DNA of 64,000 bases from a virus (taxonomy: Duplodnaviria > Caudoviricetes). The notes under the pieces were generated by a model. It was not told where the DNA came from, did not search any database, and worked only from the letters and a program-made list of their open reading frames with translations. Below are positions 20,121 through 28,498 of this stretch, piece after piece. The stretch is from the IMG/VR virus record IMGVR_UViG_3300026493_000002, one strand, 5' to 3'. Position numbers and translations under genes: made by a program. Numbering within the stretch: position 1 is the first letter of the stretch; every line of letters starts with the position of its first letter.

Positions 20121-20315
20121 ATGTCTGACAAAACCCACGCACCGATGCCGACCTGCGACTGTCTTCCGTGCAGTCATGTGGAACGGGATCGCCTGCGCAA
20201 TCTGCTGAACAATCGGCCGGCGGTGAATGCCGGTCTGGAAAGTGCGTACGTCAAATGGAGCGGACAGGTGTACGAGTCCGACATGTTGGCACACGCTGGT
20301 ATCCGTCCCAACTAG
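20121..20315 (+). CDS. small hypothetical protein
   Basis: 64 aa, CDCLPC motif. Confidence 0.5.
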   Translation: MSDKTHAPMPTCDCLPCSHVERDRLRNLLNNRPAVNAGLESAYVKWSGQVYESDMLAHAGIRPN

Positions 20316-20322
20316 GTGAGTT

Positions 20323-20751
20323 ATGCGCCTCCACTTCAAAGCTGACAATCAGAACAAGCTGTTGCCGTTCAGTGTCGATCACTGGCAGCGCGTGTTCCTG
20401 CCATACGACAAGCTGATGGTGACTGCCGATTCGGTTGTCGAGGCACCCTCCGTGTTTGAACACTGCGAGCGCGTGGCTCAACGTACTGGTCTGGGCTGGG
20501 AACTGCCTTCGATTGAGACGTTGCAACTGATCGTGGACTTCACCAAGTATCAACCTGCGGCCGATAGCCGTTACTTCCGTTTTGAGCGTGGCTTCTTTTG
20601 GTCGTCCACGCCAACTCCGTGGAGTGACGGTCACCGCTTCGGCATTGAGTTCTTCACGGGCGAAGTGCGCTATCGGCAGATCACCGAGCAGGGAATGGCG
20701 CTTTCTGTGCTGAGGGATTTCCGCCCTCCGGCAGGCAAGGCCCGGCGTTAA
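20323..20751 (+). CDS. DUF1566/Lcl C-terminal domain protein
   Basis: WELPSIETLQLIVDFTKYQPAAD..YF...FFWSSTP matches the family pattern. Confidence 0.7.
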   Translation: MRLHFKADNQNKLLPFSVDHWQRVFLPYDKLMVTADSVVEAPSVFEHCERVAQRTGLGWELPSIETLQLIVDFTKYQPAADSRYFRFERGFFWSSTPTPWSDGHRFGIEFFTGEVRYRQITEQGMALSVLRDFRPPAGKARR

Positions 20752-20752
20752 A

Positions 20753-20760
20753 TCTGTAAA
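20753..20760 (+). promoter_or_regulatory. TCTGTAAA candidate phage promoter heading the modification operon
   Basis: Intergenic, 56 nt before the ParB-like ATG. Confidence 0.65.
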
Positions 20761-20815
20761 TACCAAACGTTATCAACGAGGCCTTAGCGCCAACCACTAC
20801 AAGGCAAACGACAAG

Positions 20816-21634
20816 ATGGGCAAGCACCTGAAACTTACGGACCTGCGTGAGGCCGAATACAACCCGCGAATCATCAGCGCCAAGCGACTGGAGAATCTCC
20901 AGAAGTCCATGCTGCGCTTCGGTGACCTCTCGGGCGTCGTGTTCAACGAGTCCACCAAGAAGCTCGTTTCCGGCCACCAGCGTTTGAAGACGATCCGCGA
21001 AGCCGGCCTCGAAACCGAAATCGTGACGTCCAAGCGCAAGGACAAGCACGGCACCGTGGCAGAAGGCTACATCATCGCCAAGACCCCGGACGGCGAGATT
21101 CGTCTGCCGCTGCGCGTCGTCAACTGGGCCGACAAGAAGGCTGAAATCGCGGCGAACATCGCAGCCAATGCGCACGGCGGTGACTTCGACCGTACCAAGC
21201 TCGGCGCGCTGTTGGTCAAGCTCGAAAAGGGCAAGGCGTTCGACATTGACACGCTGGGCCTCGACCCGCTGTCTCTGCGTGGCCTGATGCAGGTCATGCC
21301 GACGCTGGGCACCAAGGGTGAAGGCGGCGGTGAAGAAGACGGCGAGAGCTTCCCGGAGTACGGCGAAGACAGCTTCGACCTGCATCACACCTGCCCCAAG
21401 TGCAAGTTCCGTTTCAGCGCATCGGCTTCTTCCAAGAAGGCGCCGGGCCCGAAGGAGAACAAGCAGGTCGAGGCAGCCAAGAAGACCAAGGCTGCGAAGA
21501 AGGATGCCGAGAAGAAGGCGTCCAAGAAGTCCAAGAGCGACGACGATGCACCGGTGAAGAAAAAGAAGTCCAAGAACAAGGACGAGCCGGCGAAGAAGTC
21601 GAAGAAGGACAAGTTCAAGAAGCTGCGTAAGTAA
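20816..21634 (+). CDS. ParB/Srx-like domain protein with zinc ribbon and Lys-rich tail
   Basis: LREAEYNPRIIS...FGDLSGVVFN...LVSGHQRL ParB N-terminal pattern; FPEYGED..HHTCPKCKFRF. Confidence 0.8.
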   Translation: MGKHLKLTDLREAEYNPRIISAKRLENLQKSMLRFGDLSGVVFNESTKKLVSGHQRLKTIREAGLETEIVTSKRKDKHGTVAEGYIIAKTPDGEIRLPLRVVNWADKKAEIAANIAANAHGGDFDRTKLGALLVKLEKGKAFDIDTLGLDPLSLRGLMQVMPTLGTKGEGGGEEDGESFPEYGEDSFDLHHTCPKCKFRFSASASSKKAPGPKENKQVEAAKKTKAAKKDAEKKASKKSKSDDDAPVKKKKSKNKDEPAKKSKKDKFKKLRK

Positions 21635-21647
21635 CCGGAGAACAGAC

Positions 21648-22529
21648 ATGGCGCGTAAGGCCCAGAACAAGATCGCAGTGCCGGCATTCAAACGCCGTAA
21701 GTCGGCAAGCGATGCCAAACCGCGCATTCGTCTGCGCTTGACCAAGAGCCTGGAGAAGCACAAGGACGAGCCGTTGGCTATCCTGTTGTCCTCGGGCCTC
21801 GACTCCAATGCCGTGCTGTTCTCGGCATTGGAGCTCGGCATGAAGCCGCATATCTACAGCTTCACGCTCGATGACCGCGAGGCTCGTGACTTCCGTATCG
21901 CTCGACAGACGGCCGAGACCTTCGGCCTAAAGTTCACACCGATCTACCTTCCGACCGACCTCAAGAAGGTCAAGAAGGGCCTGATCAGTACCGTGAAGGA
22001 GCTCGACGCCAGCGGCAAGTCGGCCATCGAATGTCTGTACGCTTTCAAGTACGCGGTCGACTCCATCAAGGAGAAGAACATCGTCAGCGGTCTGGCGGCC
22101 GACATTTACTTCGTGCTGTCCAAGAAGGGCTGTATGCACTACAAGGACTGCGCAGACGACTACCGCATTCCGCGACACGCTACGGTCAAGGGTCCCACGT
22201 CGCAGACTTCCAAGCTGCGTGCCTACTGCAGGAAAAAGGGCAAGCGCTGGTTGAGTCCGTGGCTGACCGATCAGATGATGGACGAGTTCCGTGGTACCAG
22301 CTGGGATGACGTGAACAAGCCCAAGCAGAAGAACCCGATCCACGTGCAGTACCCGGAGTTCCTGGCTCACGCCAAGACCTACCAACACACCAACCTGCAG
22401 CTGGGCGACAGCGGTATCTCGGCACTGTTCACGCAGCTGCTGGACGATCCTCACTGGAATCCCGAGCGCCGGTTCAAGAGCATGACGGGCGTGTACAACC
22501 GCCTCGTTCGTGGAGAGATTACCAAATGA
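21648..22529 (+). CDS. asparagine-synthetase-like ATP-dependent amide ligase (CmoY-like), no glutaminase domain
   Basis: PP-loop AILLSSGLDS; DFRIARQTAETFGL; VSGLAADIYF; SPWLTDQMM; all AsnB synthetase-domain features. Confidence 0.8.
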   Translation: MARKAQNKIAVPAFKRRKSASDAKPRIRLRLTKSLEKHKDEPLAILLSSGLDSNAVLFSALELGMKPHIYSFTLDDREARDFRIARQTAETFGLKFTPIYLPTDLKKVKKGLISTVKELDASGKSAIECLYAFKYAVDSIKEKNIVSGLAADIYFVLSKKGCMHYKDCADDYRIPRHATVKGPTSQTSKLRAYCRKKGKRWLSPWLTDQMMDEFRGTSWDDVNKPKQKNPIHVQYPEFLAHAKTYQHTNLQLGDSGISALFTQLLDDPHWNPERRFKSMTGVYNRLVRGEITK

Positions 22530-23131
22530 TCTTTGAACTGAGCCGCAAAGGCTACAGGATCGAGAAGCTGGAGAAGAGCGCACGCGGTGTCGTCGCTCTC
22601 CTCCCTATCTTCGACTACCTGCGAACGTTGCCCGGCATGAGCCTGTGCACGGATCTGGATGCCCAGATCTCATACGTCGATCAGGAGGACCTCGACCTCT
22701 ACGTGGCCCACAATTTGGACTCGATCTTCGACGTTCCCGCAGAGGGACAAGGCGTGATCGCCATAGCGGGCGTCAAGAACCACCGGTCGTACAGCTACGA
22801 GCCGCGCCCGTACGTGTTCAACGAACCGGGCAGCTTCGGCATGAAGCACGTTGCTCGCGCCGCCGAACTGTGTTGCCTTGCGGTGATGCCCAACTTCCGG
22901 GGCAAGGGGCTTTGCCGCTCACTCACTCTACATCGCCTCGACAAGATGCCCGACAACCGTACGGCAGTCATTGAGTTGCGGCCGAGTGCTGACAGCCTCA
23001 ACCAGCTTTCGCGTGAGCCGGAAGCGCACGCATCTACGACCAGTGTGCAGCGCATCGCGCAGCGCCTGGGATTCAAGTACGAGGGCCGCGCTCTCGCAGA
23101 CAACAGCATGGTGCTGGTAGCACCGTTCTAA
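22526..23131 (+). CDS. GNAT-family N-acetyltransferase
   Basis: ELCCLAVMPNFRGKGLCRSL acetyl-CoA motif A; RLGFKYEG motif B; ATGA overlap. Confidence 0.8.
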   Translation: MIFELSRKGYRIEKLEKSARGVVALLPIFDYLRTLPGMSLCTDLDAQISYVDQEDLDLYVAHNLDSIFDVPAEGQGVIAIAGVKNHRSYSYEPRPYVFNEPGSFGMKHVARAAELCCLAVMPNFRGKGLCRSLTLHRLDKMPDNRTAVIELRPSADSLNQLSREPEAHASTTSVQRIAQRLGFKYEGRALADNSMVLVAPF

Positions 23132-23142
23132 GGACTTCAACC

Positions 23143-24039
23143 GTGCAAATGACCAATGTAGACCTCATTAGCGCCCCGTTTGGTGAGGGCGCTGGTGTTC
23201 TGGGATCCGAGAACGGCCCGAGTATGCTGGTTAAGCTCGGACTCTGCTCGGCGATCGGGCACGAAGGACTGTGCATCAATCAGTTCCACGAAATCAAGGC
23301 GAAGGTGCATCCGTATGTGCCTCAGCCCAGCCTCAAGTGCGGCGGTCACACGATTGCCTACAACGATGCGATCTACGAACGCTGCATCCTGAGTCTGCGC
23401 GACGACAGGTTCCCGCTGATGCTCGCCGGCGATCATTCGCTCTCCATCGGTTCGATCCTCGCCGCCAGCGACTACGCGAAGGAGAATCGGAAGAAGTTCA
23501 TCTGCCTGTACATCGACGCCCACACGGACTTCAACACTCCGGAGACGACGATGACGGGCAACACCCACGGCATGACGCTTGCCGCTGCCGGTGGCCTGTT
23601 CCTCGATCTTGCGGTTGAGGCCTCGGAGAACCACCTGGACCTGTCCAGCATCATCTATTACGGTGCGCGTGACATTGACCACGAGGAGCAGAAGCTGCTG
23701 GATGAACATCCGGAGATTACCGTCATCGACATGAAGGACCAGTTCCACCTTCTGACGCTGATGGATCTGCTGGACGAACGTCTCGACGAGGACACCCACA
23801 TCCACGTCAGCTTCGATGTGGACAGTCTGGATCCGAATCACTTCCTCGCTACTGGCCTGAACGTGCCGAACGGTCTCCTTCCACAGGAAGTCGAGGCCCT
23901 CTTCCAGGATCTGCGTGCCAGCGGCGCGGTCAAATCCCTTGACGTGGTTGAGTACAACCCGTCCAAGGACAACGCCACTTTTGAAGGCGGCCTGATGGTC
24001 AACACCATCGTGTCCCGTCTCTTCCACAACGCCCGGTGA
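23143..24039 (+). CDS. arginase (binuclear Mn ureohydrolase)
   Basis: GDHS, DAHTDFNTPETTMTGNTHG, GARDIDHEE, SFDVDSLDP, DVVEYNP: all Mn ligands and arginase-type substrate residues. Confidence 0.9.
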   Translation: MQMTNVDLISAPFGEGAGVLGSENGPSMLVKLGLCSAIGHEGLCINQFHEIKAKVHPYVPQPSLKCGGHTIAYNDAIYERCILSLRDDRFPLMLAGDHSLSIGSILAASDYAKENRKKFICLYIDAHTDFNTPETTMTGNTHGMTLAAAGGLFLDLAVEASENHLDLSSIIYYGARDIDHEEQKLLDEHPEITVIDMKDQFHLLTLMDLLDERLDEDTHIHVSFDVDSLDPNHFLATGLNVPNGLLPQEVEALFQDLRASGAVKSLDVVEYNPSKDNATFEGGLMVNTIVSRLFHNAR

Positions 24040-25052
24040 CAGACGTGTCCAAGAAAATCTTCAAGATGCCTACGATGAAGGCAATCAACGCCAAGGAGAA
24101 GCACTTCAAGGGTATCAGCACGTTCAGTGGCTGCGGTGGCAGTTCGACTGGCGTGAAGATGGCCGGCGTCAAGGTGCTGGTGGCAACCGAGTTCATCAAG
24201 CCTGCGATTGAGACCTACAAGGCGAACCACAAGGGCACCAAAGTGCTGGGTGATGACATTCGCAAGGTCGACTGGGAAGCTGTGCGCAAGGAGTTCAAGC
24301 TCAAGCGCGGTCAGCTGGACTTCTCCGAGGGCAGTCCGCCGTGCAAGTCGTTCTCCACTGCTGGCACCAAGAGTGAAGGCTGGGGCGAGGAAAAGAAGTA
24401 CTCCGAGAACGTCAGTCAGCGTACCGACGACCTGTTCTACGAGGAAATGCGCAAGCTGTCCGAGTTCATGCCCAAGACCTTTGTGTGCGAGAACGTCAAG
24501 GGCATGGTCGAAGGTGACGCCAAGGGTTACTTCCTTGAAATCCTCCGTGACCTCAAGGCGGTCGGCTACAACGTCCGTGCGCAGGTGTTGAATGCTGCGC
24601 GTCTCGGTGTTCCGCAGGCCCGTGAGCGCATCATCTTCGTTGGCGTCCGTGACGATCTGGCGAAGAAGGGCCACATGCCCGTATTCCCCAAGCCGCAGAA
24701 GCACGAAATCTACGTCACTGACGTGCTGCCGAAGATCGCCTACCTCAAGTCGAAGAAGAACGGCATCATGCAGTACGTGCCGGCTACCATCCCGAGTCCG
24801 ACCATTGTTGCATCCGATGGCCTGAACTCGGAGACTGCGGGCTTCTCGACCGGCGGCTTCATCGAGACCATTGAGGGCGAACGTCGCAAGTACACCATCG
24901 AGGAGTTGAAGAAAATCTTCACCTTCCCCGAGGACTTCGTGTTCACCGGCAACTATCGCCAGCAGTTCGAGCGCATCGGCCGTTCGGTTCCGCCGTTGAT
25001 GATGTACCACGTCGTCCGCGAAATCCGTAGGCAGATCCTCGAAAAGCTGTAA
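24036..25052 (+). CDS. C5-cytosine DNA methyltransferase fold, predicted carboxymethyltransferase (CmoX-like)
   Basis: FSGCGG (I), GSPPCKSFS (IV), ENVKG (VI), QARERIIFVG (VIII); motif X reads IGRSVPP instead of GNSV. Confidence 0.85.
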   Translation: MTDVSKKIFKMPTMKAINAKEKHFKGISTFSGCGGSSTGVKMAGVKVLVATEFIKPAIETYKANHKGTKVLGDDIRKVDWEAVRKEFKLKRGQLDFSEGSPPCKSFSTAGTKSEGWGEEKKYSENVSQRTDDLFYEEMRKLSEFMPKTFVCENVKGMVEGDAKGYFLEILRDLKAVGYNVRAQVLNAARLGVPQARERIIFVGVRDDLAKKGHMPVFPKPQKHEIYVTDVLPKIAYLKSKKNGIMQYVPATIPSPTIVASDGLNSETAGFSTGGFIETIEGERRKYTIEELKKIFTFPEDFVFTGNYRQQFERIGRSVPPLMMYHVVREIRRQILEKL

Positions 25053-25053
25053 A
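25047..25053 (+). promoter_or_regulatory. CTGTAAA candidate promoter overlapping the stop codon
   Basis: Motif includes the TAA of the transferase gene, 29 nt before the next GTG. Confidence 0.4.
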
Positions 25054-25081
25054 CCATCCTCACATCCAATCGGAGATTCCC

Positions 25082-25726
25082 GTGAGCGAAGAACAGAACG
25101 AAACGGCTGTCGTTGTGCCGCCGGAACCCAAGACCATCACGGTGCTGATTCTCGGCACCGATCGCAACGTCGGCCAGGACAAGCTCGGTGAGCAGCTGGC
25201 CGCACAGTTGATCGCTGGTGGCATCAAGGTGCAGCACACGCCGACCGATGACTACGCGCGCATCCGCGCTGGCGAACTGCCCAGCCTGATCGAGAGCCAC
25301 CTGAGCAAGAAGCACGCCATCAACGTGCTGTCCTACAACGGTGCGCTGTCGCATCCCGAGACCGGCCCCGTGGCCCTCGCGCTGCTGTACACGGTGAAGC
25401 CCAGCCTCGTCATCATGTGCCACGCGGGCTTTCGCGGTACGCAGGACGGTGTCAGCGTGCAGGGCGTTGGCCTTGCATCTGAAATCGCCAACACACTGCT
25501 GTTCGCTCGCCGCTTCAATCCCGATGCGAAGCTGGCGGGCATCAATCTGCATGGCGAAGGCCAGACCGAGGCCGACCTCAAGACCACGATTGACGAGACC
25601 TATCCCCTGGGTCAGTCGTTCGGCGTCGAAGTGTTCTCCTTCGACAGTGGCTCCGACGATTCGGAACTGCCCGAGGAGTTCGTTGAATCCATTGACGTGC
25701 TGGCACGAAAGGCGAAGTCACGATGA
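25082..25726 (+). CDS. DUF1611-like (DgcN C-terminal) protein with degenerate P-loop
   Basis: ILGTDRNVGQ vs family GTDcavGK; YNGALSHP vs EGQGSLxHP; LLYTVKPSLVIMCH vs LLxGsxPDxxILCH; KLAGINL. Confidence 0.6.
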   Translation: MSEEQNETAVVVPPEPKTITVLILGTDRNVGQDKLGEQLAAQLIAGGIKVQHTPTDDYARIRAGELPSLIESHLSKKHAINVLSYNGALSHPETGPVALALLYTVKPSLVIMCHAGFRGTQDGVSVQGVGLASEIANTLLFARRFNPDAKLAGINLHGEGQTEADLKTTIDETYPLGQSFGVEVFSFDSGSDDSELPEEFVESIDVLARKAKSR

Positions 25727-26571
25727 ACGCGATTACTGATACGGAGTTCCAGGACCAGGGCGTCGTCTCGCCTCCGTGCGTCAAGAAGGTCGATGACCAC
25801 CAGCCGGGCGCGAAGTGGGAGTTCAATGCCGACGTCGCCGTCAAGTTCGATGACATGCTGGGCCGCTCGATTCCGGGCTACCTGCAGATGCGCGAACTGG
25901 CGTACGAACTGGGCAAGAAGTTCATCCCCGATCAGAACGTCAACGTGATCGACCTGGGCGCTTCGCGTGGTGAGTCGGCTTCGGCCTTCATCGACACGCC
26001 TGCGTTCTCGGGCGCCAACTACTTCCTCAGCGAAGTCAGCGAGCCGATGCTGGATCAGATGCGTGAGCGCTGGAACGGCGTGTCGAACGTCCATCCGGTC
26101 AGCTACGACCTGCGGCGCAAGTACACCGATATCGCCTACGCGATCCACGATCCCGTGCGCAACATGGTGAACAACGGCAAGATACCAAGCACGCCGTACA
26201 CGCTGCATCCGACGACGCTGGTGCAGGCTATCCTGACCCTGATCTTCGTGCCGATCAACTTCCGGCAGGGCATCCTCAAGGGTGTCCACGAGGGCTTGGC
26301 TCCGGGCGGCGCGTTCATCATGGTCGAGAAGGTCCTGGGCGACAGCGCCGAAATGCAGGACCTGTTGGTCGATGCCTACCACGATCACAAGCATCGTCAC
26401 GGCTACAGCTGGGAAGACATTGAGCGCAAGCGTGCGTCTCTGGAGGGCGTGCAGGTTCCCGTGCGCCACGAGGAGAACATCGCCATGCTGCGCTCGGCCG
26501 GCTTCCGCAACGTCGAAACCTTCTGGCGCCATCTGAACTTCGTCGGGTACATCTGCATCAAGGACCAGTGA
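25723..26571 (+). CDS. cmoA: carboxy-S-adenosyl-L-methionine synthase-like
   Basis: WEFNADVAVKFDDMLGRSIPGY, DLGASRG, GLAPGGAFIMVEK, GYSWEDIERKRASL align with E. coli CmoA, including the KR arginine (codon 26431-26433). Confidence 0.88.
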   Translation: MNAITDTEFQDQGVVSPPCVKKVDDHQPGAKWEFNADVAVKFDDMLGRSIPGYLQMRELAYELGKKFIPDQNVNVIDLGASRGESASAFIDTPAFSGANYFLSEVSEPMLDQMRERWNGVSNVHPVSYDLRRKYTDIAYAIHDPVRNMVNNGKIPSTPYTLHPTTLVQAILTLIFVPINFRQGILKGVHEGLAPGGAFIMVEKVLGDSAEMQDLLVDAYHDHKHRHGYSWEDIERKRASLEGVQVPVRHEENIAMLRSAGFRNVETFWRHLNFVGYICIKDQ

Positions 26572-26641
26572 CCTCTTAGAGGCTCACCGCGACAGTCTAC
26601 AACGGGCCTTCTCAGGAAGGCCCCATGAAGAGGGCTTCACT

Positions 26642-27115
26642 ATGTTCGGTTGGCGTAACATCCTGACCGCACCGAAGAACAAACGTATCCTCGTGTGCGG
26701 CAACAACTGGTCCGACTCGCAGGGTCCATTGAAGGAGCCGGTGATTGCTCAGTGGAATGAAAGTCGTGAACGCTGGGAGACTGGCACCGGCATTCTGGGT
26801 ACTTACGGCATTCGCCCGACCCACTGGCAGCCGCTCCCTGAGGTCTACTCCACGTCGTCGATGGATCCGAAGCACATGATCTACGTTGACACGGGTCGCG
26901 TCCTGAGCATTCACGCCGCGGTGAAGGTCGTGCTGGCGTACGAGGGTGTTCCGTTCGACGTGGTGACTGGCCCTCACGGTGCAGGCCTGCTGGTCGAACC
27001 CCAGCATCTGGACAAGATGAATCGCGTTGCCAATGATTGGGGCGGGCTGCGTGACTCCATTCCACGCGCGCTGTTCAACGCTACCGTGGACTACCAACAG
27101 AGGAACAAGCCGTGA
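26642..27115 (+). CDS. DUF551-like phage protein
   Basis: WRNILTAPKNKRIL...W...PTHWQPLP. Confidence 0.65.
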   Translation: MFGWRNILTAPKNKRILVCGNNWSDSQGPLKEPVIAQWNESRERWETGTGILGTYGIRPTHWQPLPEVYSTSSMDPKHMIYVDTGRVLSIHAAVKVVLAYEGVPFDVVTGPHGAGLLVEPQHLDKMNRVANDWGGLRDSIPRALFNATVDYQQRNKP

Positions 27116-27249
27116 GCGACACCCTGAAATGCGACTACTGCGGCTACGTGTACCAGCTCGGTCTCAGCCTGTACAAGGCCGGCGACAAGTGCCCGAAGTG
27201 CAACGGTCGCGGCATTCTCTGTTCCAAAGGCTCGCGAGGTAACCCGTGA
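27112..27249 (+). CDS. 45 aa zinc-ribbon protein (not in the ORF track)
   Basis: GTG..TGA overlapping both neighbours by GTGA; CDYC...CPKC. Confidence 0.65.
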   Translation: MSDTLKCDYCGYVYQLGLSLYKAGDKCPKCNGRGILCSKGSRGNP

Positions 27250-28025
27250 GCAGCCACGTTCTTCGAGTAGTGGACAACCCCACACTTCCGCTCGTTCCGG
27301 AATTCTCGGTCGCCGTCGGTCATTCCATCGGTGACTTCGGAGCGCAGGCCAGCAGTCTCGGAGGCATCGTCTATGCAACGTTGCTTAAGAAGAGCTCCAT
27401 TCCGAATGAGGAGTCGGCGCGTCGTCTGCACGCTTCGATATCCAAGCTGTACACGGAAGATCTGGATCGACCGATAGCGGGCATGACCGCTCAGCTTGAT
27501 GACTACAGCATTCCTCTCTTGCGCATGTCTAGCGCCGAGATTGACCAGTTGGTATATCTCGGATTCAATCCGATCCGCTGCGCAATCCAGTTCGGCGTTG
27601 TTCCGTGGGCGCAGCATACGTCTCATGGGTACAGCATCCAGCTGCTGCGCCTCTTGGTGACGGCTATTCATGCCATTTCAGTACGGGCGGGGCGTGCCTG
27701 CGAAGCCTGTTCGCTGGAAGGACCTGCACGCAATCACGCCCTGTACCACCACTCTGCTGAGGTCTTCATGGAGCTCCAGCAGTTCAGGCTTTCGCATATG
27801 TTCCAACTGGTAGCAGGCAGACACGGAGCGCACGGTATCGCCATTATGCTTGAGCGCGACGCCCCGCCGTTCGGAAAGAACTTCCTTGAGGAGGCTCTGT
27901 GCATAAGCACGGACGTCATGGAGGTCGGTAACGTTTTCGGAACCCTCCACCAGTTGCAGATCCTGCATGAACTGTGGCCGAGCATGTTCACTGGTGGCCC
28001 GCAAATCTGTAAAGGGAATCGGTAG
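27246..28025 (+). CDS. hypothetical protein
   Basis: 259 aa ORF, weaker codon bias. Confidence 0.55.
   Translation: MSSHVLRVVDNPTLPLVPEFSVAVGHSIGDFGAQASSLGGIVYATLLKKSSIPNEESARRLHASISKLYTEDLDRPIAGMTAQLDDYSIPLLRMSSAEIDQLVYLGFNPIRCAIQFGVVPWAQHTSHGYSIQLLRLLVTAIHAISVRAGRACEACSLEGPARNHALYHHSAEVFMELQQFRLSHMFQLVAGRHGAHGIAIMLERDAPPFGKNFLEEALCISTDVMEVGNVFGTLHQLQILHELWPSMFTGGPQICKGNR
28006..28013 (+). promoter_or_regulatory. TCTGTAAA candidate phage promoter
   Basis: At the end of the upstream gene, 33 nt before ATG 28046. Confidence 0.55.
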
Positions 28026-28045: not shown

Positions 28046-28498
28046 ATGCGCGAATTGAAGTTGCTACGCAAGCGCGTAAAGGCAATGTGGAAAATGGAAG
28101 AGGAGTTGTCGCCTCCGGAGCGCAAGCTCCATCAGTGGCAATTCCTCTCGACCCAGACGGGCATCCCGTATCTCGTAGGCAAGGGTGACGCAAACACCTT
28201 CTTCTACAAGATCGGCGAGAAGGGCGAAATGCAGTACGTCATGCCCGACAAGATGTTTGCCATCTTGGACAAGTGGTGCGGCGAGAAGTACGTCATGTAC
28301 GCCATCGCTCGCAACTCCAACGTGAAGAAGGCCAAGCGCCAATCGAAGGTCCTCGCCGACCTGTTGAAGCGCACCAACTCCAAGTATGCGGACTACCACA
28401 TCGTGGGTATCACCGCCGACAGCCGAGTGGACAAGCTGTACTCGATGAAGACAGGCCTGACGGCCAACCAGTGGGTGCCGTTGAAGGTCAAGCCGTAG
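28046..28498 (+). CDS. hypothetical basic protein
   Basis: GAGG RBS, strong codon bias. Confidence 0.7.
   Translation: MRELKLLRKRVKAMWKMEEELSPPERKLHQWQFLSTQTGIPYLVGKGDANTFFYKIGEKGEMQYVMPDKMFAILDKWCGEKYVMYAIARNSNVKKAKRQSKVLADLLKRTNSKYADYHIVGITADSRVDKLYSMKTGLTANQWVPLKVKP

Follow-up and report, generated by a model that had tools for sequence, protein, structure and literature searches.

Introduction

Carboxymethylation of phage DNA has been described in Synechococcus phage S-B43, where the cytosine C5-carboxymethyltransferase SpCmoX was solved at 1.9 Å together with carboxy-S-adenosylmethionine (Cx-SAM; PDB 8YF3; Yang et al., Nat Commun 2025, PMC12783734). In this system, a phage CmoA produces Cx-SAM, SpCmoX moves its carboxymethyl group onto cytosine C5 in GC sites, and CmoY, an Asn-synthetase-like ligase, then couples glycine to the carboxyl group; in native S-B43 DNA the glycine amide was seen and 5-carboxymethyldeoxycytidine (5cxmdC) was not. 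The carboxylate/carboxymethyl group of Cx-SAM is contacted by Arg350 of SpCmoX, which takes the place of Asn304 in M.HhaI. Wild-type SpCmoX accepts only Cx-SAM in vitro, and its R350N variant accepts neither S-adenosylmethionine (SAM) nor Cx-SAM. Using an SPPC motif and an arginine at the R350/HhaI N304 position as search criteria, the same study found 5,615 homologues in phage sequence data, often accompanied by CmoA, the ligase and a ParB-domain gene, the last reported as a ParBc association (PMC12783734). Here we examine a 338-residue gene in the window, by which we mean the whole 64,000-nucleotide stretch of IMG/VR record IMGVR_UViG_3300026493_000002, and conclude that positions 24036-25052 very probably encode a CmoX-type DNA cytosine C5-carboxymethyltransferase of a PaBG-like soil jumbo phage.

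Cationic side chains at this structural position have also been engineered. Saturation mutagenesis of N374 in M.MpeI found that cationic side chains best support Cx-SAM use (PMC13288465, 2026), which documents a premise of the initial annotation of this gene, namely that a basic residue in place of the motif X asparagine leads to Cx-SAM use. At the structurally homologous site of M.CviPI, K or R likewise confers Cx-SAM use with SAM use kept (PMC13288465), and M.MpeI N374K and M.CviPI Y205K/R use Cx-SAM through a salt bridge to its carboxylate (PMC13288465; PMC12783734). The parallel to M.MpeI N374K is pointed out by Yang et al. in their Discussion (PMC12783734). Outside DNA modification, the tRNA 5-hydroxyuridine (ho5U) carboxymethyltransferase CmoB recognises the Cx-SAM carboxylate by Lys91, Arg315 and Tyr200 (PMC10491745). 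CmoB acts on a different substrate (the tRNA wobble base, by O-alkylation) and belongs to a different Rossmann-fold family from CmoX, and the two are a case of convergent use of one cofactor. The CmoX family and its arginine rule are already known, having been published in December 2025, and the window adds an example, not a discovery.

Results

An arginine occupies the motif X asparagine position

The gene and its diagnostic codons are located in the window as follows.

24036..25052, + strand: CmoX-type DNA cytosine C5-carboxymethyltransferase gene (predicted), 338 aa; PF00145, 8YF3 match, AlphaFold model
24333..24344, + strand: motif IV S100-P101-P102-C103, including the catalytic cysteine; 121/121 homologues, aligns with SpCmoX S95-P96-P97-C98
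24969..24971, + strand: Glu312 codon, four residues before Arg316 in the same predicted helix; co-varies with Arg316
24981..24983, + strand: Arg316 codon (cgt), motif X, replacing the canonical Asn; aligns with SpCmoX R350 and the HaeIII/MET1 Asn

Positions 24960-24995 (cag cag ttc gag cgc atc ggc cgt tcg gtt ccg ccg) translate as QQFERIGRSVPP, that is Q309, Q310, F311, E312, R313, I314, G315, R316, S317, V318, P319 and P320, with 24975-24995 spanning exactly I314-P320. Motif X of the protein reads FERIGRSVPP, and both the nucleotide sequence and the open reading frame translation agree with the initial annotation, which had read ERIGRSVPP with Arg316 at 24981-24983. Canonical SAM-dependent C5 methyltransferases have an asparagine here (G-N-x-V), at the position that Arg316 occupies in the window enzyme. 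Translation is taken to begin with the GTG at 24036, which shares bases with the stop codon of the upstream arginase gene (GTGA); a second GTG, at 24045, could serve equally well and would move the numbering by 3. Since relatives start at about the same position (PaBG MEKKIV..., locus L030 MTKKKIV...), residue numbering is good to within 3.

The assignment of Arg316 to the asparagine position was supported by several alignments. Using phmmer, ferIGRSVPP aligned to ykmIGNAVP of M.HaeIII and to rqIGNAVPP of the plant DNMT1-type enzyme MET1, in both cases with R316 on the asparagine. The M.HhaI alignments end at query 319/chain 307 and query 318/chain 306, so R316 falls on HhaI N304. The motif X region of 8YF3 is matched without gaps (terVGRMVPPLMM against ferIGRSVPPLMM), and counting from chain residue 316 places R350 opposite R316. 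The initial annotation had proposed M.HhaI and M.MpeI as the reference alignments, and of these M.HhaI bears out the equivalence, whereas for M.MpeI (4DKJ) phmmer aligned only residues 94-212 and stopped short of motif X. A search with the C-terminal fragment had neither 4DKJ nor HhaI among the alignments listed. We take the MpeI equivalence from the published work (PMC12783734, PMC13288465) and that of HhaI from the alignment end-points together with the published structural overlay (PMC12783734).

The cofactor and catalytic residues of SpCmoX are conserved

The window protein is a C5 DNA methylase by PF00145 (E 2.5e-53) and by NCBIfam TIGR00675 (E 2.4e-46). Its best match among all PDB chains is 8YF3 (phmmer, E 1.4e-58). 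An AlphaFold2 model built on 121 homologues (predicted local distance difference test, pLDDT, 91.4; predicted template modelling score, pTM, 0.91) also has 8YF3 as its top Foldseek match (E 9e-27, TM 0.77), ahead of HaeIII and HhaI. SpCmoX is 36% identical to the window enzyme (E 8e-71), and all six of its published cofactor and catalytic residues are conserved.

SpCmoX F25: window F30
SpCmoX E47: window E52
SpCmoX F48: window F53
SpCmoX D69: window D74
SpCmoX S95-P96-P97-C98: window S100-P101-P102-C103
SpCmoX R350: window R316 (phmmer and BLASTP)

The features that mark CmoX membership, namely the PF00145 fold, SPPC, the R350-equivalent arginine, the F/E/F/D cofactor contacts and a nearby CmoA, are all present. 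SpCmoX and the window enzyme further share the E-R-x-G-R sequence and an adjacent Asn-synthetase-like ligase in addition to CmoA. They differ in the segment that separates motifs VIII and IX and recognises the target: in the window enzyme it is shorter by about 30 residues and barely alignable, so the GC specificity of SpCmoX is not transferable to it. Moreover, S-B43 is a marine cyanomyovirus and the window comes from a soil PaBG-like jumbo phage, with GNAT-like, arginase and DUF1611-like genes in its cluster that S-B43 lacks.

Arg316 co-varies with a glutamate one helical turn earlier

To the window protein we aligned its 120 best database homologues (44-95% identical; 121 sequences in all). 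The SPPC motif is invariant in this alignment, F30, E52, F53 and D74 are found in 119-121 of the 121 sequences, and R316 is kept in 119, down to 44% identity. By this sequence record Arg316 is neither a chance residue nor an error, because it is kept in those 119 homologues, in PaBG gp309 and in a 95%-identical metagenomic copy of the gene. The residue at position 312 follows the one at 316, with E312 present in 119/119 Arg-type and 0/2 non-Arg homologues; the two sequences without the arginine, P0055 (G-N) and P0078 (G-M), have K and T, respectively, at position 312. The same pattern is seen in an alignment of 16 phage enzymes, consisting of the window enzyme and those of 15 deposited phage genomes, where E-R-x-G-R occurs in all eight Arg-type enzymes and a glutamate at −4 in none of the eight others, which have N, M or L at motif X and A, Y, R or a gap at −4. 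In canonical enzymes the −4 residue is K or R (HaeIII ykmIGN, MET1 hrqIGN). In the AlphaFold model, residues 307-316 are helical, placing 312 and 316 one turn apart on the same face, and by this model Glu312 probably pairs with or positions Arg316.

P0055 (L026:1308-2327) and P0078 are CmoX relatives of 53-58% identity in which Asn or Met stands for the arginine and the −4 glutamate is also lost, and they may represent a reversion to, or a retention of, ordinary methylation. A CmoX allele 92-96% identical to that of the window (L032:2362-4263) is split by an intein (about 375 residues) whose insertion point is exactly the catalytic cysteine (GSPPC|F...VHN|CKSF); the window gene lacks this intein. 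In the CmoX homologues of Erwinia phage pEa_SNUABM_5 and Yersinia phage fHe-Yen9-02 (about 700 aa), the same position holds an insert.

The motif X arginine accompanies a CmoA gene

One gene downstream of CmoX lies a second predicted cofactor-related gene.

25723..26571, + strand: CmoA-like carboxy-SAM synthase gene (predicted), 282 aa; 4GEK/4IWN/1IM8, TIGR00740, phrog_4752
26431..26433, + strand: codon of CmoA Arg237, the R of ERKRASLEG; ungapped phmmer alignment to 4GEK

The ATG of this gene overlaps the stop codon of the preceding gene. Its product matches the E. coli and Haemophilus CmoA structures 4GEK, 4IWN and 1IM8 (E 1e-23 to 3e-21) and phrog_4752 (E 1.2e-63), and it is 62% identical to PaBG-type CmoA and about 30% identical to the CmoA gene of S-B43. 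As the initial annotation held, the arginine of the KR motif is retained, with R237 lying ungapped opposite 4GEK chain residue 213, the R of SQKRSMLEN (the QKRSMLEN motif of E. coli CmoA). We take this residue to be Arg199 of E. coli CmoA, on the assumption that the 261-residue chain owes its 14 additional residues to an N-terminal tag; Arg199 lies near the Cx-SAM carboxylate. Because it is homologous to 4GEK (E 1e-22) and to the assayed SpCmoA family, the product of 25723-26571 is predicted to act like CmoA, as a member of a divergent phage branch.

A tblastn search of 50,697 phage records with the window CmoA found a homologue in 69 of them, and the aligned phage enzymes divide by motif X residue as follows.

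CmoA-encoding, motif X Arg (7/7): window, PaBG, S-B43, S-CRM01, TurkishDelight, Erwinia pEa_SNUABM_5, Yersinia fHe-Yen9-02
No CmoA match, motif X Asn: CL131, P74-26, vB_E555
No CmoA match, motif X Met: tooticki6-1, FPSV-S2, BMBtp14, LoVEphage
No CmoA match, motif X Leu: Melnitz-3
No CmoA match, motif X Arg: Moraxella phage Mcat8

Eight of the nine aligned phage enzymes without CmoA in the genome have N, M or L at this position. The ninth is the E-R-M-G-R CmoX-like enzyme of Mcat8 (L015, KR093632.1), a 40-kb phage of temperate type, which may take Cx-SAM from its host, by analogy with SpCmoX in E. coli. Among Arg-type relatives whose context was examined, Mcat8 is the sole one without CmoA; in the others it is encoded close by or at another place in the genome of the phage. 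The distance from CmoX to CmoA is no more than about 4 kb in nine full PaBG-like IMG/VR loci (L002-L010), in L029 and L030, and in four divergent jumbo-phage contigs (L033-L036) whose CmoX is 51-61% identical. Conversely, P0055 (58% identical), the only close relative with Asn, shows ParB-ParB-MTase-p150 synteny on a 5.9-kb contig that has neither CmoA, where synteny predicts it, nor a CmoY-like ligase. Counted by lineage, there are about ten with Arg and CmoA, one with Arg without CmoA, none with a non-Arg residue and CmoA, and eight with neither; this tally reaches nominal significance, but it does not represent independent events, since the Arg-type enzymes are most closely related to one another. 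The link between the arginine and CmoA is strong, and it is not absolute because of Mcat8.

Two further features of these genomes were seen. The methionine of the Flavobacterium, Bacillus and Bacteroides phage enzymes (L017, L018, L019 and L021) occurs in the context I/C-G-M-S-V-P-P, and in L020 (Melnitz) a leucine replaces the motif X Asn; tblastn found no CmoA in the L017-L021 genomes. In two jumbo-phage contigs of 290-311 kb, a chorismate mutase gene (PF01817 CM_2; L034:11847-12134 and L035:11148-11591) stands between CmoX and CmoA, such that the phage would itself make prephenate, the co-substrate of CmoA. Prephenate supply was left as an open question by Yang et al., who make no mention of chorismate mutase (PMC12783734). 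No chorismate mutase homologue was found in the window.

CmoX lies in a cluster with variable accessory genes

The remaining cluster genes surround CmoX and CmoA in the same orientation.

20816..21634, + strand: ParB-N-like gene, head of the cluster; phrog_620 E 2.4e-32
21648..22529, + strand: CmoY-like ATP-dependent amide ligase (predicted), Asn-synthetase-type PP-loop, without glutaminase domain; PF00733 E 6.9e-9
22526..23131, + strand: GNAT-like protein, 201 aa, weak assignment; PF00583 E 0.0021, below cut-off
23143..24039, + strand: arginase-family ureohydrolase (predicted), 298 aa; PF00491 E 4.5e-44
25082..25726, + strand: DUF1611 C-terminal-domain-like protein, 214 aa, between CmoX and CmoA; PF07755 E 1.1e-12

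Start and stop codons overlap by 4 nt at the ligase/GNAT-like, arginase/CmoX and DUF1611-like/CmoA junctions. The ligase is 30% identical to SpCmoY (E 6e-33) and matches phrog_26038 (E 5.6e-58), with nothing found for it in the PDB sequence search. The arginase-family protein is closest to the NCBIfam rocF arginase model (E 3.9e-53, below cut-off), and its translation shows the metal-ligand motifs GDHS, DAHTD and SFDVDSLDP. The GNAT-like protein had no PDB, NCBIfam or PHROG match, and the DUF1611-like protein had a weak match to DgcN (E 7.6e-7) and, among PDB sequences, only a weak match to 7XRJ. No PHROG family matches the arginase, GNAT-like or DUF1611-like protein, and IMG/VR scans with the arginase and DUF1611-like proteins returned no relatives. 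A ParB-like gene stands upstream of CmoX in L002-L010, PaBG, L026, L028, L030 and L033-L036.

The ligase, GNAT-like and arginase genes recur together in three lineages (window; L029, L030, L031, L032), with the GNAT-like gene always between the other two. Across these lineages the ligase is 89-96% identical, whereas its two partners diverge much faster (GNAT-like protein, 44-72%; arginase, 50-74%). PaBG-type clusters, whose ligase is about 35% identical (about 38% in PaBG itself), lack the arginase and GNAT-like genes. The arginase clade comprises four database clusters, beyond which identity to Luteimonas-type bacterial arginases is at most 38%. The DUF1611-like gene of L029 (2987-3670) is only 35% identical, though the flanking CmoX and ligase are 95-96% identical, and the gene is absent from L030; this pattern resembles that of an accessory gene that evolves rapidly or has been swapped. 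About 1.5 kb downstream of CmoA, the window encodes a small protein of unknown function (p150, 150 aa, 28046-28498). Its homologues lie a few kb downstream of CmoX in PaBG (gp307), L002-L010, L026, L028 and L033-L036, and directly after CmoA in PaBG-type clusters.

The stretch derives from a PaBG-like soil jumbo phage

Among deposited genomes, the nearest is Pseudomonas jumbo phage PaBG, where blastn matches at about 74% DNA identity are confined to ParB, CmoX and CmoA; megablast of 25 kb against deposited phages gave no match. The window comes from a soil jumbo phage of the PaBG-like kind. Soil metagenomes also contain this stretch, one copy being a 27.5-kb contig from a second study with 103 substitutions and no indels. 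Positions 21648-26571 are also present in seven soil libraries labelled metatranscriptomic, and in the two examined they lie inside 51-74 kb contigs at flat depth. This looks like carried-over phage DNA or pervasive coverage and not evidence of operon transcription. A promoter and terminator scan of 20200-27300 found sites no more numerous than in shuffled sequence.

Discussion

Our analysis supports the view of the initial annotation that this transferase is a carboxymethyltransferase, at the level of sequence comparison. We favour the CmoX-type assignment because R316 corresponds to SpCmoX R350, the other SpCmoX residues are kept, 8YF3 is the top match, the arginine is conserved and linked to CmoA, and the genes overlap as in an operon. 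Homology, residue equivalence, conservation and gene linkage are results of the present work, and cofactor use and chemistry are carried over from SpCmoX. In the mechanism we propose, the neighbouring CmoA would make Cx-SAM out of SAM and prephenate. CmoX would flip the target cytosine out, Cys103 would attack C6, and the C5 carbanion would take the carboxymethyl group from Cx-SAM to give 5-carboxymethylcytosine (5cxmC). Arg316 would bind the extra carboxylate of the cofactor, with Glu312, one helical turn earlier, probably positioning or balancing it. The carboxyl group would then be a handle for the adjacent CmoY-like amide ligase.

M.HhaI, M.HaeIII and DNMT1-type enzymes share the fold of the window CmoX and its motifs I, IV, VI, VIII and X, but pair the motif X asparagine with a basic or neutral −4 residue where the window enzyme has Arg and Glu. 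M.MpeI N374K and M.CviPI Y205K/R carry a cationic residue in the structurally equivalent place; however, these point mutants were made in the laboratory, retain SAM activity and recognise CpG or GpC, whereas the window CmoX belongs to a natural, selected lineage with a co-varying glutamate at −4. Its nearest deposited counterpart, PaBG gp309 (YP_008433500, 'DNA cytosine methylase'), is 80% identical over its full length with the same GRSVPPLMMY and likewise has ParB upstream and CmoA downstream. The PaBG cluster runs ParB-CmoX-CmoA-p150-ligase, without the arginase, GNAT-like and DUF1611-like genes. The initial annotation also proposed to test whether an R316N substitution restores methylation. 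By analogy, loss of all activity would be expected instead, because SpCmoX R350N accepted neither cofactor (PMC12783734).

Several observations weigh against the CmoX-type assignment. The window enzyme is known from its sequence and a predicted structure alone, and its identity to SpCmoX, the only characterised member of the family, is low at 36%. Mcat8 has the arginine without a CmoA that tblastn could find in its genome. The window CmoA has an insertion and scores below the model cut-offs for its family (TIGR00740, E 1.6e-33, 116.4 bits against an equivalog cut-off of 193.3; PRK15451, 85.7 bits against 285). In addition, the engineered Lys/Arg variants of M.MpeI and M.CviPI keep SAM activity (PMC13288465), so the arginine alone is no proof of Cx-SAM exclusivity. 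By analogy with them, Arg316 on its own would predict the ability to use Cx-SAM and not its exclusive use, and exclusivity probably needs the rest of an adapted pocket. These variants, which gained Cx-SAM use with methylation kept, speak for the possibility that the window enzyme might use both SAM and Cx-SAM, leaving DNA with a mix of 5-methylcytosine and 5cxmC-derived bases set by the Cx-SAM supply from CmoA. We consider this improbable, given that SpCmoX accepts only Cx-SAM in vitro and that S-B43 DNA contains the glycine amide and no 5cxmdC (PMC12783734), and that the co-conserved Glu312 and wider family signature point to a pocket adapted beyond one substitution.

The intact PF00145 fold and catalytic motifs would also suit an ordinary SAM-dependent C5 methyltransferase with a tolerated odd motif X, in which case CmoA could serve tRNA uridine 5-oxyacetic acid (cmo5U) synthesis, SAM depletion or a small-molecule pathway; tRNA genes do occur near this cluster in PaBG-like phages, and a CmoB elsewhere in the phage genome is possible. 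This reading is very unlikely, since the residue in question is one crystallographically shown to bind carboxylate (PMC12783734), Arg and CmoA co-occur across more than ten lineages with an Asn-bearing close relative lacking CmoA, and the translationally coupled cluster includes an amide ligase needing a carboxyl substrate. That the divergent CmoA makes some other SAM analogue, and that a group other than carboxymethyl is installed, is suggested by its sub-threshold equivalog score and its distance from the S-B43 gene. We regard this as extremely unlikely, because the C-terminal half of CmoA including the KR motif aligns ungapped with E. coli CmoA, the arginine in CmoX suits an anionic substituent, and PaBG-type CmoA is 62% identical within the same phage family, phrog_4752. 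A CmoX-type carboxymethyltransferase remains the preferred assignment.

What follows carboxymethylation may differ from S-B43. The ligase, GNAT-like and arginase genes recur together, PaBG-type clusters lack the two partners, the arginase clade is small, and no PHROG family matches the arginase, GNAT-like or DUF1611-like protein. From this we raise, tentatively and while leaning somewhat against it, that the carboxymethyl mark is not glycine-capped but processed into an undescribed DNA base by a co-inherited module of the ligase variant, the GNAT-like protein, the arginase-type ureohydrolase and sometimes the DUF1611/DgcN-like protein. For example, the product could be an arginine-linked amide trimmed to an ornithine-type, positively charged side chain and possibly then acylated.

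The one-residue rule could re-annotate thousands of phage 'DNA cytosine methylase' genes, including PaBG gp309, as carboxymethyltransferases, and the co-varying glutamate narrows that rule to E-R-x-G-R. Relative to the text of Yang et al. available to us, this locus and its relatives add the perfect covariation of Glu(−4) and Arg, a natural Asn-bearing close relative without CmoA that acts as a natural control, and the exchange among related jumbo phages of genes acting on the carboxyl handle. Such phages are a source of sequence-diverse carboxymethyltransferases for DNA-labelling uses. The swapped genes would be the arginase, GNAT-like and DUF1611-like genes here and chorismate mutase in others, and this exchange suggests a family of related, chemically different DNA bases.

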